From sequence record PZ386957.1: a DNA stretch of 64,000 nt; one strand, 5' to 3'. The notes under the pieces are model-generated. The model was not told the DNA's origin, did not search any database, and saw nothing but the letters and a program-made list of their open reading frames with translations. The stretch comes from a phage. The translations under genes and the position numbers were made by a program. Shown in pieces: positions 4,609-46,909 of this stretch (position 1 is the first letter of the stretch; each line of letters starts with the position of its first letter).

Positions 4609-5679
4609 TTATGCTAACATATCTTCGATTTCTTTGTCAACTGCTTCGTCGCTGATCACTTGCCCCAGCTTATAATGGTCATTGATTGCTTCGTTAAACT
4701 TATCGTTTGTCAGAAGTGGTTTCCAGAACTCAATGCTGTTGGTTTCTTTAGCACGGAACTTTCGTTCTTCGGTTTCCATCTCTCCGGTCTCAGTATTCAG
4801 GATGGAACGAGAATACCAGCCGTTTGACGGTTTCACTACCCAACCTAACTCTACAGCCAATTCTAGCAAACCGGAATAAGGATCGATACCACCGCTAAAG
4901 GTTACGCTAATCGGGAACTTAGATTTTTCTTTAACGGTTCGTGATTTTTCCGCATTCAGGATAAAATCATAACCAGTAATTTCGGTTCCTTCTTTCTGTT
5001 GACGACGACCGATAATAAAGCATTCGTTGGCGCTGTACATTGCGCCCGTACCACCGGACATAACGGTCTTGCTAAACATTTCTTGCGTTTCGTATGTGTG
5101 GTTAATCGCAATGCACGGAATGTCATTCATAGTCAGATATGGTGTAATCATACGGAACAAGCCTTTAAGTGCTTTAGCTCGCGTCATATCCTGCGCCGAT
5201 TTCTCATTAATCGCGTCTTCAACTTCTTTTTTGCTTGCTAAGTTACCGATTGAGTCAATAAAGATGATCACTTTATCTTCACGGGTAATTTGCTCAAGCT
5301 GGTTCATGATCTCAAATTTAAGTTCTTCGATGTTCTTGATTGGAACGTGTACCACGCGATCAGGATCTACACCCATAGATGACAGATATGCGGAAGTAAT
5401 ACCAAACTCAGAATCAAAGAACAAACAAGCCGCATCAGGATTCTGTTTCATGTATGCACTAACACAAGTTAATCCCATGTTTGATTTAAAGTGCTTAGAT
5501 GGACCAGCAAAGAAAATCAGACCAGATTGAAAGCCTTTTTTAAGATCACCAGAAAACGCAATATTCAGCATCGGGATCTTAGTGCGAGTATTTGTTTTTT
5601 CGTTAAAGAAGCTGGATTTAGACAGTACCGCAGTAGTTTTCAGGGTAGAGTTCTTTTTCAGTTTTTCCAGTACAGACAT
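4609..5679 (-). CDS. uvsX: UvsX recombinase (RecA/Rad51 family)
   Basis: 356 aa; near-colinear with recalled T4 UvsX (FFNEK..RTKIPM.NIA.SG, GPSK.FKSN, IAINHTYETQEMFSKTVM.GGTG). Confidence 0.92.
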   Translation of the reverse strand: MSVLEKLKKNSTLKTTAVLSKSSFFNEKTNTRTKIPMLNIAFSGDLKKGFQSGLIFFAGPSKHFKSNMGLTCVSAYMKQNPDAACLFFDSEFGITSAYLSSMGVDPDRVVHVPIKNIEELKFEIMNQLEQITREDKVIIFIDSIGNLASKKEVEDAINEKSAQDMTRAKALKGLFRMITPYLTMNDIPCIAINHTYETQEMFSKTVMSGGTGAMYSANECFIIGRRQQKEGTEITGYDFILNAEKSRTVKEKSKFPISVTFSGGIDPYSGLLELAVELGWVVKPSNGWYSRSILNTETGEMETEERKFRAKETNSIEFWKPLLTNDKFNEAINDHYKLGQVISDEAVDKEIEDMLA

Positions 5680-5690
5680 TATTAATACCT

Positions 5691-5918
5691 CTATTCAGTT
5701 AATCCGTAATACTTTAATTGCTTCATTGTTATTCGATCTTTGTAGTGCTCTTGAATTAACTTTTTCATCGCATCAACATCGATCGTCACAAATACTTCGT
5801 TGCTGTGATTTCCGTGAACTTTCTTGAAGTGCTCTATCGCGTCCTCTCGTTCACGTCTAATCTTTTCGATATCTCTCATAGTATATTTCTCACGCTGGCG
5901 GGTATCGTCACCCAACAC
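5691..5918 (-). CDS. hypothetical small protein
   Basis: 75 aa ORF; the only gene between polymerase and uvsX, where T4 carries imm, 42 and beta-gt. Confidence 0.45.
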   Translation of the reverse strand: MLGDDTRQREKYTMRDIEKIRREREDAIEHFKKVHGNHSNEVFVTIDVDAMKKLIQEHYKDRITMKQLKYYGLTE

Positions 5919-23277: not shown

Positions 23278-23787
23278 TCAAATAATTTTCACTGGAATAC
23301 TATTAACAATCTTGTATTGTACTTGATTGTCAGACCCCCGCCACGGCTTCTTCGTTGGCATATCTTTAATATAACGCCCATCGATGAACATGTCAACTGA
23401 TTCTACAATTTTTCTTTGCTCATCATTCAATTGGTCAAGGGTATAACCGGACCATAGCCAAATATCTTTATTTGGCATCCATGATTTTACTTCATCGATG
23501 ATCCGCTGTACACCCTTTAAATTGCGTTTATACAGTGGATCACCACCTAAGAATGTTAGCCCCTGAATAAAATCAGGTCTAAGCAGATCCAGAATCAATC
23601 CCATTGTATCATCGGTGAATGGTTCCCCGTTCTTAGGATTGAGTAGGCTAGCATTAAAGCAACCATCACATGCGTGTGAACATCCGGTAACGTAAAGGGA
23701 GACTCTCACTCCCTCACCGTTAACCATATCACAATCTTTAATATCGGCATAGCGTAGTTTGCCGTATGTATCAGAACTCATATTCAA
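23278..23787 (-). CDS. nrdG: anaerobic ribonucleotide reductase activating protein NrdG (radical SAM)
   Basis: 169 aa; radical SAM cluster motif CSHACDGC; size and position match T4 NrdG. Confidence 0.88.
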   Translation of the reverse strand: MNMSSDTYGKLRYADIKDCDMVNGEGVRVSLYVTGCSHACDGCFNASLLNPKNGEPFTDDTMGLILDLLRPDFIQGLTFLGGDPLYKRNLKGVQRIIDEVKSWMPNKDIWLWSGYTLDQLNDEQRKIVESVDMFIDGRYIKDMPTKKPWRGSDNQVQYKIVNSIPVKII

Positions 23788-25182: not shown

Positions 25183-27045
25183 TTACATGTGCTTAACGCG
25201 GTTTACCATCTCGGAGTGTTTCCCGTGGTTAAATGGACGCAGATCAACAGATCCAAGATATCCACTAACGCGGCGGATAACATTCATCTTTTCCAGATTG
25301 TCATTGCCGCAATCAGGGCAAACAAAACCAGACTCGGTCGCTCTCATTTCCTTATTAGATCCGCATACATGACATACATCAGAAGGAGTATTAACACCGA
25401 AGTAGTGCAATTTATCCATTGCATAGTCTACTACAGTTTCAAGACCTTTCAGGTTGTTTTTCATGTCTGGGAACTCAACATAAGAGATCATGCCACCGGA
25501 CGCCAGACAGTGATAATCTTTCTCAAAGTCGATTTTCTCAAACGGTGTAACCTTCCGGTCTACGTCAAGGTGGAATGAGTTGGTGTACCAGTCTTTATCG
25601 GTAGCACCCTTAACAATACCAAATTGCTCTCGGTCCAGTCGATTAAATCGATAGCAAAGGCTCTCGGCTGGCGTACCGTAAAGACTAAAACCAAGTCCGG
25701 TTTCGTCCTTCCATTTTTCAGTATAATGACGCAAGATCTTAAGAATATGTTTACCGTATCGCTGCGCATCTTCCGAATCAAACGGATGAACACCAAACAG
25801 GACGCTCAATACCTCATGTAAACCAATATACCCAAGAGAGATACTAGCGCGACCATCTTTCAGCACTTCCAAAATTTCATCGTTTTGATGAATACGGAAA
25901 AATGCACCTTCGGTATACAGTACAGGGGCAACATTGGCTTTAGCACCTTTTAAAGCGTCTACGCGACTCATGAGAGCATCAAAACAAATAGGCATACGAT
26001 TAGCTAGCTCTTGTTCGAATAGCTCAATTCTGCGCATTACAGACGCTTTACCAGCACGACGCGCGGCAATAAGGGCAATACGCGGAAGATTCAGAGTCAC
26101 AACACCCAAGTTATTACGTCCGTCTAATACTTCTTCGCCTTTCTCATTATGCCACACACCCAGGAAGCTACGACAACCCATCGGGCTAACCGGAACACTA
26201 GATCCGGTGATACTACGGTTATTCTTCGCAGAGATATAATCAGGGTAAAGACGCTTACTAGAACATTCCAATGCAAGTTGCTTAATGTCGTAGTTCGGAT
26301 CTTCCGGTTTAAGGTTTAATCCTTCTTCTAAGAACATCACCAGCTTAGGAAACACCGGAGTTATACCATCTTTACCTAAACCTTTAGTTCGAACTTTCAG
26401 GATCGCTTTCTGAATCAGTTTTTCTTCCCAGCTAGTACCCATACCAAAGGTTAAAGTCACAAAAGGCGTTTGACCGTTGGTGGAGAACAAAGTGTTGATT
26501 TCATATTCCAACGCTTGATACCCGTCTAAAGTTTCTTTTTCTGTCTTCTCTTGTGCATAGAGAGTATCAGCTTTGATTCCGTAGGTTTCGGCATCAGCAA
26601 GGTGTTTATGATATGTTTTCTCAACATACGGTGCTAACACCTGATCGATGTTTGCAATTGTGGTCCCGCCATATTGATGACTTGCCACCTGTGCGATAAT
26701 TTGAGCGGTTACAGCACAAGCAACGCCGATTGATCTCGGACTTTCGATTTGTGCACTACCCAATTTAAAACCATTCTCTAACATGTCCTTGAGATTAACA
26801 AGACAGCAGTTAGTAAACGGCATAGCGGGTGCATAATCCATATCATGATAATGAATATCACCGTCTACATGCGCTTTATAGATGTGCTCAGGTAACACGG
26901 TTTTAGCAATCTGTTTAGACACAGCGCCAGCAATCAGATCTCGACGTGTCGGGAATGTTCGCGCGTCTTTGTTCGCGTTCTCTTTGCTTACTTCGTTTTC
27001 TTTACCCGTTGCAATCTCTGTAATGTCTTTGATTAGTTTTTCCAT
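25183..27045 (-). CDS. nrdD: anaerobic ribonucleoside-triphosphate reductase NrdD (glycyl radical enzyme)
   Basis: 620 aa uninterrupted; C-terminal glycyl-radical motif RRVSGYLGS and CxxC...CxxC zinc site (CHVCG, CPDCG). Confidence 0.92.
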   Translation of the reverse strand: MEKLIKDITEIATGKENEVSKENANKDARTFPTRRDLIAGAVSKQIAKTVLPEHIYKAHVDGDIHYHDMDYAPAMPFTNCCLVNLKDMLENGFKLGSAQIESPRSIGVACAVTAQIIAQVASHQYGGTTIANIDQVLAPYVEKTYHKHLADAETYGIKADTLYAQEKTEKETLDGYQALEYEINTLFSTNGQTPFVTLTFGMGTSWEEKLIQKAILKVRTKGLGKDGITPVFPKLVMFLEEGLNLKPEDPNYDIKQLALECSSKRLYPDYISAKNNRSITGSSVPVSPMGCRSFLGVWHNEKGEEVLDGRNNLGVVTLNLPRIALIAARRAGKASVMRRIELFEQELANRMPICFDALMSRVDALKGAKANVAPVLYTEGAFFRIHQNDEILEVLKDGRASISLGYIGLHEVLSVLFGVHPFDSEDAQRYGKHILKILRHYTEKWKDETGLGFSLYGTPAESLCYRFNRLDREQFGIVKGATDKDWYTNSFHLDVDRKVTPFEKIDFEKDYHCLASGGMISYVEFPDMKNNLKGLETVVDYAMDKLHYFGVNTPSDVCHVCGSNKEMRATESGFVCPDCGNDNLEKMNVIRRVSGYLGSVDLRPFNHGKHSEMVNRVKHM

Positions 27046-27615: not shown

Positions 27616-27643
27616 TTATAGCATACTCCCTTCGCATGTCAAG
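27616..27643 (-). promoter_or_regulatory. sigma70-type early promoter
   Basis: Minus strand TTGACA-16-TATAAT; -10 lies inside inverted repeat GGGAGTAT..ATACTCCC. Confidence 0.6.
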
Positions 27644-28817
27644 CACTAACTTTTTTCTTTACTGCTTTCACCTTCTGGCGAATTGCTCGAATCTCTTCGA
27701 TCTCTTTTTCAGTCTCTTTAACAATTTCTTTGCGATTCTGAATATCTGTATCGAGATTATCATCAAGTTTAGGCAGCATGTCAATCAAGAACTTTTTAAA
27801 GTCTTTCAGGTTTCGAATAACAGCACCTTCGCCCATTACCGCAACACCCACACCATCCGGCAGATCACCAAACAGCTTAACCAGTTCAGACAGATGATCA
27901 TGATCTTCTAGTGCTTCTTCCGGTTCAGATGGCAGTTCAACAAAGTTATAACGTTCATCATTGCTGATCAAGTGATACCAGCAAAGCCCGAAAGATTTCG
28001 GTGTATATTCTACACCATCAATTTCAACCGCGTCAACACTTCCATAATCATCTACTTTAGTTACCTTAAATCCTTGTCCCAGCTTTTGAACAATTTCAAC
28101 AACATGACTTGATACAGTTTCAGCGGTAAACCAATATGGCAAATTATGCTGATTTGGCTTGTAGCGTTCACCTACTTTAAATCTCTGACCATCCGCTTGC
28201 ATAGAATGAAATTGTTGTTTCGTGATTTCCGCGAAGTATTCAAATTCGCCACCATCAAACACACAAGCCCATTGATCACAAAAACGATCTGCCTTAACAG
28301 TTTCACCTTTCGCGGTGATCATGGTAGCTGATCCGTGCAATTCTTCTTCAACTAAAAAGCCATATTCGACAAAATCAACAAGTTTCATAGCTTCTTTGTG
28401 ATCTGGATCATGCTCTCCCCAGAATCGCTTAAATTCTTGCAAACCTTCTGGGGTAAACGAATAACATTTACCTTTTTCAAAGTAAGTCGGCATTGCATCC
28501 TCTTTCTTGTTCATCGCTTCGTATGCCTCTTTTGAGATGCGTTTAAAGTATTTACGCTCATTGTGCATAATCATAGTAGCCCAATAATCAACAATATCAT
28601 TAGCGGAATAAACTACATCTCCAGCTTCAATAGTAATAACATGACCGTGGTCATCTTTTTCTAATACTTTAAAGCCCTTTTCTACGATTTCAGCAACCCG
28701 AATATGACCACGGCGCGAAGCATCGGTCAGAATAATTGAATAGCGAGAAAAGTCTAGAAACTCATCTTTACCGCCTTCACGGAATGCATAGTAATGACCT
28801 TCAAAGAATTTAGCCAT
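27639..28817 (-). CDS. tandem-paralog family protein (three repeat domains)
   Basis: 392 aa; three internal copies of the roughly 85-aa repeat domain, each ending in an ERKYF-like motif; C-terminal lysine-rich helix. Confidence 0.65.
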   Translation of the reverse strand: MAKFFEGHYYAFREGGKDEFLDFSRYSIILTDASRRGHIRVAEIVEKGFKVLEKDDHGHVITIEAGDVVYSANDIVDYWATMIMHNERKYFKRISKEAYEAMNKKEDAMPTYFEKGKCYSFTPEGLQEFKRFWGEHDPDHKEAMKLVDFVEYGFLVEEELHGSATMITAKGETVKADRFCDQWACVFDGGEFEYFAEITKQQFHSMQADGQRFKVGERYKPNQHNLPYWFTAETVSSHVVEIVQKLGQGFKVTKVDDYGSVDAVEIDGVEYTPKSFGLCWYHLISNDERYNFVELPSEPEEALEDHDHLSELVKLFGDLPDGVGVAVMGEGAVIRNLKDFKKFLIDMLPKLDDNLDTDIQNRKEIVKETEKEIEEIRAIRQKVKAVKKKVSA

Positions 28818-28848: not shown

Positions 28849-28877
28849 ATCTTACTACTCCCGTTTCATCATGTCAA
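28849..28877 (-). promoter_or_regulatory. sigma70-type early promoter
   Basis: Minus strand TTGACA-17-TAAGAT inside inverted repeat GGGAGTA..TACTCCC. Confidence 0.5.
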
Positions 28878-29440
28878 GCGTTAAATGACTTTTGGATCTC
28901 TTTCAGTTCAGCTACTTTATCGGCGCTATATTTTGCTTGATGTTCCATGCGCTTAAGCTCACCTTTGATATAGGTTTCTAGCTTAGGTTTATTCTCAATC
29001 AGAAAATCTTTCAAGTCATCGGCATTTTTAAAGTATAGCTGATTATCAAAGCTAAAATCTTCCAGCGTCAAGGATACCAAAGAAGATTTCGCAAACAAGT
29101 TAATCAGATCTTCCAGAGATTCTTCTTTCTTAACTGGTTTCATTTCTTCAAACTGCTTTTTAGTGATGCGTTTAAAGTATTTGCGCTCGTTTGCAGCAAT
29201 CAGAACAGATGCACCTTCATACCCATGAGTTTCTACCAGATACACACGCCCCATCGCATCAACAGTGAGAACTTTAAAGCCGTTACAAAGCACGTCATAC
29301 AAGAACTTATTATGTTGCGGACATCGTTTGATAAATTCTGCGGCTGTTTCTGCACTACGGAAAGTGTAATAACGACCTCGTTCAAAAGCAGCATCATTTG
29401 AAGACTTAGCCGGATACAATTTATACGTTTTCTGTACCAT
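28874..29440 (-). CDS. tandem-paralog family protein
   Basis: ORF track 28874..29458; start refined to ATG 29440 (GAGG RBS); contains NGFKVLTVDAMGRVYLVE and ERKYFKRI repeat signature. Confidence 0.6.
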   Translation of the reverse strand: MVQKTYKLYPAKSSNDAAFERGRYYTFRSAETAAEFIKRCPQHNKFLYDVLCNGFKVLTVDAMGRVYLVETHGYEGASVLIAANERKYFKRITKKQFEEMKPVKKEESLEDLINLFAKSSLVSLTLEDFSFDNQLYFKNADDLKDFLIENKPKLETYIKGELKRMEHQAKYSADKVAELKEIQKSFNA

Positions 29441-29454
29441 AATATAATCCTCTA

Positions 29455-29727
29455 TCATTTCACTAATTGAACAGCACGAAACAGAATGCGGTCACACGGA
29501 AGAAGCATAAATTCCCAACGCGGATCAAAGTCTTTAGCGGTATATGTTTTCCCATCAACCGAGATTTCACTTACATAACCAATAGGTGACACTTTAAGAA
29601 CAGTAAACCCATTCTTGATGACTTCGTAGGTATCTTTCAAACCTTCGTAGTCATCCTCTAGGAAGTCTTTACGTGCTTGCTCAGATTTAAAAACATAGGC
29701 CACACCGGATTTAAACATCTTACGCAT
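29455..29727 (-). CDS. tandem-paralog family protein (single repeat domain)
   Basis: ORF track 29455..29787 trimmed to ATG 29727 (AGGAGA RBS), downstream of the promoter at 29759-29787; NGFTVLKVSPIGYVSEISVDGKTY signature. Confidence 0.55.
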   Translation of the reverse strand: MRKMFKSGVAYVFKSEQARKDFLEDDYEGLKDTYEVIKNGFTVLKVSPIGYVSEISVDGKTYTAKDFDPRWEFMLLPCDRILFRAVQLVK

Positions 29728-44635: not shown

Positions 44636-45334
44636 CTAACCACGTGTATAGTGTTCCAGAACAACGGTCAGATGAATATCTTCTAATAAATCTTTCCAAA
44701 AGTCAACATATGGTTCTTCCGGCATACCGTTTTTCTTTGCCTCTTCACGCGCGAGTTTAACACGCTCGTAGAGATCTTTCAATTCTTCCCGCACATCATC
44801 AAAGGTTCTTTCGCCCATCTTACATGCTAAGATAGAATCACGTTGAGATAGCGGGAATTGTAGATCACCTGTCTGATAGATTTCAAGTAGCTGATAACCA
44901 ACACGCAGAGCATGAGAAAGATCTTTCCAGTTACTGAAATACTTTTCAGATTTGGCTACCTGTTTCTTGAGATAACCAGACAAACCCCACATCCCAACAT
45001 GATAGAATTTATCGCGATGTGTTCGGATGTATTCCCATTCTCTGGAGGATTCAATCAACATGTTACTAGGCGCGTGCACCATGTCAATAGCGCCAATATC
45101 ACCTTTACATGCCAGATTGATAAACCGTTTTAGACTGAACATATTAACGTCAATATCGTCTTTGGTGTTCTTGATACCTTGACCGCTAGTGCTTTGGTCA
45201 TAGTGTTCTTTCATCGATCCTAAGATAATTTCTTTAGCAGTCGGAACAAAGATACCACGATAATCTTTATCGGAATTTTCAGTATTAAGGCCGTATAAGT
45301 GAGATCCGAAGACCATTTTAACCATTGTATGCAT
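44636..45334 (-). CDS. Pol-beta-superfamily nucleotidyltransferase-like protein
   Basis: 232 aa; N-terminal GS-x10-DKD (GSHLYGLNTENSDKDYRG) plus downstream acidic DIDVNM, matching the minimal nucleotidyltransferase signature. Confidence 0.6.
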   Translation of the reverse strand: MHTMVKMVFGSHLYGLNTENSDKDYRGIFVPTAKEIILGSMKEHYDQSTSGQGIKNTKDDIDVNMFSLKRFINLACKGDIGAIDMVHAPSNMLIESSREWEYIRTHRDKFYHVGMWGLSGYLKKQVAKSEKYFSNWKDLSHALRVGYQLLEIYQTGDLQFPLSQRDSILACKMGERTFDDVREELKDLYERVKLAREEAKKNGMPEEPYVDFWKDLLEDIHLTVVLEHYTRG

Positions 45335-45387
45335 AATTAAACCCTCAGTTGATTAAGAGATTGCATCATATCATCATAAAAAGAAAA

Positions 45388-45410
45388 AGCCAACCCTTTC
45401 GGATTGGCTT
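45388..45410 (-). terminator. rho-independent terminator after the GrcA-like gene
   Basis: GCCAATCCGAAAGGGTTGGC hairpin followed by a U-tract on the minus strand. Confidence 0.55.
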
Positions 45411-45415
45411 AGAGT

Positions 45416-45832
45416 TTACATTGATTCCGTAAAGGTTCGAGTAATAATATCTAATTGTTGCTCACGAGTTAAGCTATTGAAGCGGCAAGCATAGCCCGAA
45501 ATTCGTACAGTTAGCGACGGGTATTTTTCAGGATTTTCCAGCGCATCCAGAAGAAGATCGCGATTCATTACGTTGACATTGATATGTTGAGCACCGCGAT
45601 TAGTTCCGATCTCACCGTCAACCATCACCGAACGGAAGCTAGTTGTGTGCAGTGCCAGCGAATCTACGTCTTCGGCAGTGATCACATGGTCTTCTGCGAA
45701 AGTCTTACTAACAATTACTTTAGCACCGATCAGTGCTTTCGGTTCTGATACCAGAATCATAGGCGCGAAGTGTCCACCAATAACAGTACCTTTATGCTCA
45801 CCTTTCATGATTTGAATTGCTTTAAATTCCAT
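45416..45832 (-). CDS. grcA: autonomous glycyl radical cofactor (GrcA/YfiD-like)
   Basis: 138 aa; C-terminus QHINVNVMNRDLLLDALENPEKYPSLTVRISGYACRFNSLTREQQLDIITRTFTES nearly identical in pattern to recalled E. coli YfiD glycyl-radical domain. Confidence 0.85.
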   Translation of the reverse strand: MEFKAIQIMKGEHKGTVIGGHFAPMILVSEPKALIGAKVIVSKTFAEDHVITAEDVDSLALHTTSFRSVMVDGEIGTNRGAQHINVNVMNRDLLLDALENPEKYPSLTVRISGYACRFNSLTREQQLDIITRTFTESM

Positions 45833-45967
45833 AATTCACCTCTTATAGATCAGGACGTTCGTCATTAATTTTACCAACCAAAACCCCATAGAGTTTATCA
45901 GGTTGGACTTTACGATTCTTTTTAATTGTAGCACGAAATCGACGAGCTACGCTATCTTTATTTTTCA

Positions 45968-46459: not shown

Positions 46460-46519
46460 AATAAGTCTCCAGTAAACGGGGAGAGATCCTTAGATTGTCT
46501 CCCCATTGATGGTTAATAA

Positions 46520-46909
46520 TTATTTTGGATCTGGGTAAGCAGAACTCAGCAATTCAAAATGCACACCGTCTTTGAATGCCAAAAAATCCCCGCCCCATTT
46601 AATCGGAATATTCAATTCCTTACTAGCTTGTTTAAATGCATCAGCGATCATTCGGTAATATTTCATGTTCCATGTATCCTTATCTTTCGGATACGCTACA
46701 ACATCAACCGCGAAGCCATGAAGATGGCGAGATTTCATAGTCTTAGACTTACCTTCCGCAAAATATTTCTTCTGCGTTTCCAGACTGCGCACACCTTCCG
46801 TAATGCCAAAATCTACAGGAGTTAATTCAAGTGCGCGAGTCGCCACCTTAACCAGATCTGGATGCACACCAACAAGTCGGTCTTTACTTCTTTGAGATAA
46901 TTTAAACAT
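46520..46909 (-). CDS. peptidase M15-family cell-wall hydrolase (T5-type L-Ala-D-Glu endopeptidase, candidate endolysin)
   Basis: 129 aa; zinc-ligand motifs SRHLHGFAVD and GVHFEL; resembles recalled phage T5 endolysin. Confidence 0.78.
   Translation of the reverse strand: MFKLSQRSKDRLVGVHPDLVKVATRALELTPVDFGITEGVRSLETQKKYFAEGKSKTMKSRHLHGFAVDVVAYPKDKDTWNMKYYRMIADAFKQASKELNIPIKWGGDFLAFKDGVHFELLSSAYPDPK

Follow-up and report, generated by a model that had tools for sequence, protein, structure and literature searches.

A Krischvirus ortholog of T4 Vs.6, a predicted glycyl radical spare part with a divergent radical-domain cassette

Bacteriophage T4 protein Y06I and E. coli YfiD (GrcA) are radicalised by PFL-AE and restore oxygen-cleaved pyruvate formate-lyase (PFL), according to Wagner et al. 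(2001) as reported in PMC8683613, and the same source presents the pair as the only two biochemically validated spare-part proteins. YfiD's N-terminal half is needed for binding the cleaved PFL (PMC8683613). In T4, the gene vs.6 lies between regB and vs.8, and its RefSeq name is 'autonomous glycyl radical cofactor GrcA'. We equate T4 Vs.6 with Y06I on two grounds: no other GrcA-like gene occurs among the T4-type records listed, and the gene falls within the regB–denV interval. A Gly_radical domain was described in vs.6 in 6/6 genomes, those of T4 and five T4-like phages, and a part in nucleotide metabolism was suggested on the basis of the shared Pfam domain (Nolan et al. 2006, PMC1524935). 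Formate, a product of PFL, is the reductant of one group of anaerobic ribonucleotide reductases (RNRs), a use first demonstrated with the enzyme from E. coli (Mulliez 1995, as cited in PMC11226230).

We describe a vs.6 gene in the window, the whole analyzed stretch of phage DNA (64,000 nt, sequence record PZ386957.1). The window is that of a Krischvirus, an RB49/Phi1-like relative of the T-even phages, and the 4 kb around vs.6 are 90–92% identical to KFS-EC, kvi, Phi1 and RB49. The gene, its two halves and its expression signals are located as follows:

45416–45832, minus strand: vs.6 (grcA-like) coding sequence, 138 aa, predicted autonomous glycyl radical cofactor, by synteny and sequence the ortholog of T4 Y06I
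45635–45832, minus strand: vs.6 codons 1–66, phage-lineage-specific N-terminal half
45416–45634, minus strand: vs.6 codons 67–138 and stop, linker and PFL-type glycyl radical domain
45494–45496, minus strand: Gly113 codon GGC, predicted radical site in the motif R-I-S-G-Y-A-C, aligned with PFL Gly734
45837–45844, minus strand: Shine–Dalgarno element AAGAGGTG, read from the sequence, 4 nt 5' of the vs.6 ATG
45377–45410, minus strand: intrinsic terminator with 10-bp stem AAGCCAATCC/GGGTTGGCTT, GAAA loop and T-run

The vs.6 reading frame is real: its ribosome-binding site is strong, and so is its intrinsic terminator, which begins 6 nt past the stop codon. The gene vs.8, a 41-aa ORF and vs.6 follow one another on the same strand with stops and starts that overlap or nearly abut, and vs.6 probably closes a small transcription unit. 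Nearly all ORFs of the 64-kb window lie on the minus strand (39 of the 46 with at least 150 aa), as in the early regions of T-even phages, which suggests early expression of vs.6; a motif scan found no T4-type late promoter TATAAATA near the gene. Across the whole 64,000-nt window, no tRNA genes were found by a tRNA scan and no Rfam families at gathering threshold. A sigma-70-like promoter with an extended –10 element overlaps the tail of the vs.6 terminator.

The C-terminal half of the protein carries an intact glycyl radical domain. A preliminary description of this DNA had pointed to a C-terminal glycyl-radical motif, and profile and alignment evidence bears this out: the motif RISGYACRFNSLT occupies residues 110–122, Pfam Gly_radical (PF01228) matches at 53.4 bits (E = 4e-14, cut-off 22.2), and Gly113 aligns with Gly734, the radical site of PFL. 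The best phmmer matches among PDB sequences are E. coli PFL residues 699–759 (E = 2e-26) and GrcA/YfiD, 6owr (E = 1e-24). NCBIfam models rank in the order GrcA (TIGR04365, 107.6 bits), GrcA3, GrcA2 and then PFL, and other glycyl radical enzymes fall at least 45 bits below the PflB and GrcA matches, both in NCBIfam and among PDB sequences. In its final 60 residues the protein is identical to PflB at 46/60, to TdcE at 42/60 and to GrcA at 40/60. The GrcA-like surroundings claimed for the motif are therefore right as to the PFL/GrcA type of domain, but by sequence identity the domain is slightly closer to PflB than to GrcA. The protein is not a full-length PFL: PFL models match only residues 77–138 of a 138-aa stand-alone protein, and the full-length PFL model TIGR01255 gives 83.4 bits against a cut-off of 994, covering profile positions 683–744 only.

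The reference for the GrcA family is TIGR04365 (InterPro IPR011140), with a curated equivalog cut-off of 170 bits that the window protein, at 107.6 bits, does not reach. Control sequences scored 151.1 (T4 Y06I), 133.8 (Phi1), 117.8 (RA40) and 234 bits (E. coli GrcA); the cut-off tells little about phage members, because the validated T4 Y06I also lies below it. An AlphaFold model built with 61 homologs has a mean pLDDT of 79, rising to about 90 in the C-terminal domain, and a fold search with this model returned the NMR structure of YfiD (6owr) at the top, followed by PFL (2pfl). All 21 invariant columns of 61 GrcA-like proteins are kept in Vs.6, including R110, S112, G113 and Y114. At eight positions Vs.6 departs from a residue that E. 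coli PflB, TdcE and GrcA all share: E79R, G81A, L84I, E92D, I109V, V111I, V116C and V129I. Most of these substitutions are conservative (I/V/L, E/D); E79R is a charge reversal, and V116C lies three residues past the radical glycine.

The N-terminal half of Vs.6 is phage-specific and unrelated to PflB. Within Krischvirus, codons 1–66 are nearly invariant, with 96–100% nucleotide identity and dS of 0.02–0.33. Compared with YfiD, 15 of 52 residues of this half are identical, and the HMMER alignment reaches back to residue 37 of Vs.6 (residue 29 of YfiD). AlphaFold predicts the half to be partly ordered, with beta-strands and a pLDDT of about 80, whereas NMR shows a disordered N-terminus in E. coli YfiD (PMC8683613). 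As regards the strand ahead of the radical domain in YfiD (y-beta1), at least 90% of the 61 proteins keep R67, and a strand is predicted at residues 66–69 of Vs.6. For the N-terminal half, fold searching gave only weak, low-probability KOW-like matches.

T4 vs.6 has its syntenic ortholog in the window gene, judged by gene order and sequence. The common order runs from regB through nrdC.11, vs.6, a small ORF and vs.8 to the endolysin gene. The window series of nrdC.11, vs.6, the 41-aa ORF, vs.8 and endolysin recurs in Phi1; there the gene bears the name vs.6 and, lying downstream of regB, is flanked by nrdC.11 and vs.8. PHROG 1209 is matched by residues 3–138 along its whole profile (positions 1–121 of 121; 148.5 bits, E = 1.8e-43), and identity to T4 Vs.6 is 46% over the whole length. 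These results uphold the earlier reading of the protein as a phage GrcA-like 'spare part'. The novelty that this reading implied is not sustained: T4 Y06I was characterized in 2001, and the Krischvirus GenBank records kvi, kaaroe, PHB13 and JK32 already annotate the gene as autonomous glycyl radical cofactor. By tblastn the vs.6/GrcA-like family is matched in 1579 phage records, including T5-like phages, and an exact lookup returned no database record of the window Vs.6 protein sequence. The gene-level finding is already known, and the sole new detail, a modest one and apparently undescribed, is the cassette polymorphism of the radical half. We know of no mutant phenotype for vs.6. Its downstream neighbour, nrdC.11 (44636–45334, minus strand), encodes an RlaP-family PF10127 nucleotidyltransferase, with the family label 'RNA repair pathway DNA polymerase beta family'.

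The window also encodes an anaerobic RNR and its activase:

25183–27045, minus strand: nrdD, anaerobic class III ribonucleotide reductase, 620 aa, 879 bits to NF006732, with IRRVSGYLGS
23278–23781, minus strand: nrdG, NrdD-activating radical SAM enzyme, 167 aa, with the cluster motif CSHACDGC, 166 bits to TIGR02491

As previously noted, NrdD is full length and has its own RRVSGYLGS; it is of the E. coli/T4 type. The statement that vs.6 stands 'alongside' nrdD and nrdG is correct insofar as all are in one genome; they are not adjacent, and since 18–22 kb separate them they share a genome rather than a locus. NrdG shows a weak resemblance to PflA (27 bits). Upstream of nrdD are two adjacent paralogous ORFs (27639–28817, 392 aa, and 28874–29458, 194 aa, both on the minus strand) with a repeated module of ~100 aa containing NERKYFKRI(S/T)K, of which the 392-aa protein has three copies.

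Comparison with other Krischviruses reveals a divergent cassette in the half of vs.6 that encodes the radical domain. Nucleotides 1–198 are 96% identical to Phi1, TB34 and phiS; for nucleotides 199–417 the values are 62% (Phi1), 63% (TB34) and 75% (phiS). When a sliding comparison is run along 2.7 kb, a single divergent block with sharp edges stands out at about 45400–45635, and on either side of it most windows are 93–100% identical. Between deep Krischvirus allele classes, codons 67–138 display dS from 0.9 to saturation and dN of 0.18–0.33; because dS is near or at saturation while dN is low, the block alleles are much older than their flanks and have been under purifying selection. Positive selection in codons 67–138 is unsupported, dN being well below dS. 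Among 16 Krischvirus-type proteins, the median pairwise identity of the C-terminal domain is 46/60 (minimum 34/60) and that of the N-terminal part 63/66; the GrcA proteins of E. coli and Vibrio are also 46/60 identical. The alleles are mosaic: KFS-EC/JSE, G2248, kvi and Phi1 form a series of stepwise chimeras, and two further proteins (P0060 and P0061) join a Phi1-type 5' part to a JK32-type 3' part.

An allele 96% identical in nucleotides to that of the window is on a Logan contig; its protein, P0056, was found in two Logan assemblies by a full-length search of a 5.8-billion-protein collection and is a 97% relative. A search of the phage collection for a donor of the window block found none, the best DNA match being 80%, over part of the block only. 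Recent capture of the window radical domain from E. coli was rejected, as in 5394 E. coli genomes neither tdcE nor pflB nor grcA exceeds ~70% nucleotide identity; at third codon positions the block is 33–38% identical to the E. coli genes. A search of the same protein collection with the C-terminal domain alone gave 55 candidates, none above 80% identity, and is uninformative because it missed the Krischvirus proteins. The IMG/VR scan returned a single locus, with a Phi1-type allele.

Exchange with host DNA can be traced in T4 itself, in the following segment:

NC_000866 (locus L002), 5558–5745: grcA-like segment of T4 vs.6, compared with E. coli K-12 grcA

Beginning at the EGGQ codons and running to the stop, the final ~185 nt of T4 vs.6 match K-12 grcA at 97% nucleotide identity; elsewhere in the gene no DNA similarity to it is detectable. 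The segment is therefore direct evidence of phage–host exchange of exactly the radical domain, and its high identity indicates that the exchange was recent. We hold with moderate confidence that the radical-domain coding sequence, which is strongly conserved, is a recombination substrate, exchanged both with host genes and between phage alleles.

Mobile genes insert next to this cassette. Two unrelated HNH_3/NUMOD4 homing endonucleases occupy one and the same spot, directly past the vs.6 terminator and before nrdC.11; among the Krischvirus records listed, 14 have an endonuclease there, nine of the G37-3/JK32 type and five of the phiS/JSE type. In the comparison loci, the endonuclease genes are at:

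L005, 3501–4028: homing endonuclease gene
L011, 1326–1919: homing endonuclease gene
L017, 905–1435: homing endonuclease gene
L018, 616–1209: homing endonuclease gene

At this spot the window has only an 81-bp spacer (45335–45415), and like the P0056 contig it has no endonuclease; the spacer to nrdC.11 measures 81–82 bp in the two. Both endonuclease types adjoin non-Phi1 block alleles, and the neighbouring endonucleases probably promote allele exchange through co-conversion. A strict linkage between allele and endonuclease was rejected on two counts: KFS-EC has the JSE-type allele without an endonuclease, and phiS and JSE have one endonuclease type with differing alleles (72% in nucleotides). 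It is conceivable, though we hold it only tentatively, that the polymorphism is actively maintained. Endonucleases might target the conserved radical-motif DNA, so that resistant alleles would spread by co-conversion, or 'phage-type' alleles (RISGYA[C/T]...REQQLDII) might differ in function from 'host-type' ones. If either were true, vs.6 would be a natural system in which to study how homing or the host reshapes a radical cofactor domain. In the gap between endolysin and vs.8 (~46460–46551), TB34, G2248 and phiS have a 576-nt ORF that the window and Phi1 lack; its annotation is HNH endonuclease in G2248 and ERF-type transcription factor in TB34. The gap is likely a second insertion site for mobile genes, less than 1 kb from vs.6.

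We consider it likely that the window Vs.6 is the Krischvirus counterpart of the T4 Vs.6/Y06I spare part, a protein of the GrcA/YfiD kind that would restore oxygen-cleaved host PFL, and orthology with T4 Y06I supports a PFL-rescue function for this allele. In the proposed sequence of events, oxygen would cleave host PFL at its radical glycine, Gly734, and the 138-aa phage protein would bind the damaged enzyme. The host activase PflA would install the radical on Gly113; the activase must be that of the host, because the window encodes no PflA, only NrdG. The C-terminal domain of the phage protein would then replace the lost radical domain of PFL, and conversion of pyruvate to acetyl-CoA and formate would resume. 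The phage may benefit because infection shuts down protein synthesis by the host, and neither damaged PFL nor host GrcA could then be replaced; the restored PFL could supply ATP via acetyl-CoA, and formate as a reductant for the NrdD of the phage. The sequence shows the identity of the gene, its domain and orthology, an intact motif, purifying selection and expression signals; the steps that involve PflA and cleaved PFL are extrapolated from the T4 and E. coli proteins, and the gain for the phage is itself inferred. Several points speak against the spare-part reading: the TIGR04365 score below the cut-off (although that of validated T4 Y06I is also below it), the eight changed positions, an N-terminal half that matches YfiD at only 15/52 and is predicted to be partly ordered, the biochemical nature of the evidence considered for T4 Y06I, and the need for a host activase.

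Other explanations have to be weighed against this reading, and the presence of NrdD and NrdG raises one of them. Oxygen also cleaves the class III RNR NrdD at its radical glycine. A phage that encodes both NrdD and NrdG might therefore have a spare part for its own anaerobic RNR, or Vs.6 could be a degenerate C-terminal fragment of NrdD, and the speculation on nucleotide metabolism (PMC1524935) points the same way. The sequence comparisons make this scarcely credible. Identity to the C-terminus of the window NrdD is 8/37, as against 46/60 to PflB; BLASTP between the two window proteins finds only chance matches of 5–9 residues (E ≥ 0.08); no NrdD model is among the NCBIfam matches of Vs.6; and the Zn-ribbon and RRVSGYLG context typical of NrdD is absent from it. 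Alignment and BLASTP thus essentially rule out an NrdD fragment, and the preliminary description was right to set the motif apart from the NrdD version. Alternatively, vs.6 could be a passenger without function, a fragment of host pflB or grcA that was gained by recombination and is of no use to the phage. Many ORFs in the early regions of T-even phages are dispensable, and the radical domain is demonstrably exchanged with host DNA, as the T4 segment attests. A passenger would hardly be expected to keep an intact ORF with its own Shine–Dalgarno sequence and terminator, a nearly invariant N-terminal half that has no counterpart in PflB, and dN far under dS in codons 67–138. The gene is moreover present in all six T4-like genomes of Nolan et al. 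(PMC1524935) and matched in the phage records counted above, and T4 Y06I is biochemically active according to PMC8683613. We regard the passenger explanation as very improbable.

A subtler alternative accepts a GrcA-like protein but gives it an altered role: it might serve TdcE, complement PflB that is inactive without being cleaved, or act as a sink for PflA, and the alleles would reflect different partners. The spread of alleles within one phage genus, as wide as that between E. coli and Vibrio GrcA, fits such a role, as do the eight altered host-invariant positions and the similarity to the TdcE C-terminus, which nearly equals that to PflB. GrcA is reported to restore inactive full-length PflB in vivo (a 2022 J Bacteriol study, as cited in PMC13450708), and some GrcAs have been speculated to repair other glycyl radical enzymes (PMC8683613). 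Against this, PflB and GrcA are always the best matches, with other glycyl radical enzymes well behind; most substitutions are conservative; and near-saturated dS with low dN/dS marks old alleles under purifying selection and not adaptive change. An altered role therefore appears unlikely, and repair of oxygen-cleaved host PFL remains our preferred reading.

Phage GrcA-like spare parts have been known since the work on T4 Y06I in 2001, and at the level of the gene the window adds nothing new. It brings to mind the small anaerobic toolkit of T-even phages that infect gut bacteria: NrdD, NrdG and a PFL spare part, which can sustain the supply of formate and ATP. The modest added value lies in population genetics: recombination swaps exactly the radical domain. 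In T4 the partner is host grcA; in Krischviruses the exchange is among deep alleles that adjoin homing endonuclease sites. The resulting natural variants, V116C and E79R among them, would be useful for probing the tolerance of PFL and PFL-AE.

Among the closest known systems is T4 Vs.6/Y06I, the ortholog of the window protein. Both are encoded in the early region from regB to vs.8, belong to PHROG 1209, start with MxxKAxQIxxGxHKGT and end in a PFL-type radical domain. They differ in length, T4 Vs.6 having 120 aa and the window protein 138 aa, with ~18 extra residues in the N-terminal half, and in the radical domain, which in T4 nearly equals that of host GrcA (59/60 aa, 97% of nucleotides), whereas the window allele is a divergent 'phage-type' one with 39/60 identity to T4. 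E. coli GrcA (YfiD, 6owr) is likewise a small stand-alone protein whose C-terminal half duplicates the PFL radical domain; it aligns over residues 29–127 with residues 37–138 of Vs.6 at 50% identity, and its motif is RVSGYAV where the window protein has RISGYAC. E. coli PflB 699–759 is the sequence closest to the window radical domain (46/60), with MNRx-LLDA-EN, ITRTFT and a terminal SM in common, but PflB is a 760-aa enzyme with a Cys418/Cys419 barrel that the phage protein lacks. In T5-like phages (Demerecviridae, Salmonella phage RA40 for example) and in Aeromonas T4-like phages, the GrcA-like proteins also have a C-terminal Gly_radical domain, with 40–41/60 identity, and that of Aeromonas phage phiWae14 shares the RISGYA...REQQLDI signature with the window Vs.6; they differ in having other N-terminal halves and another genomic context, which in the T5-like phages is a tRNA region.
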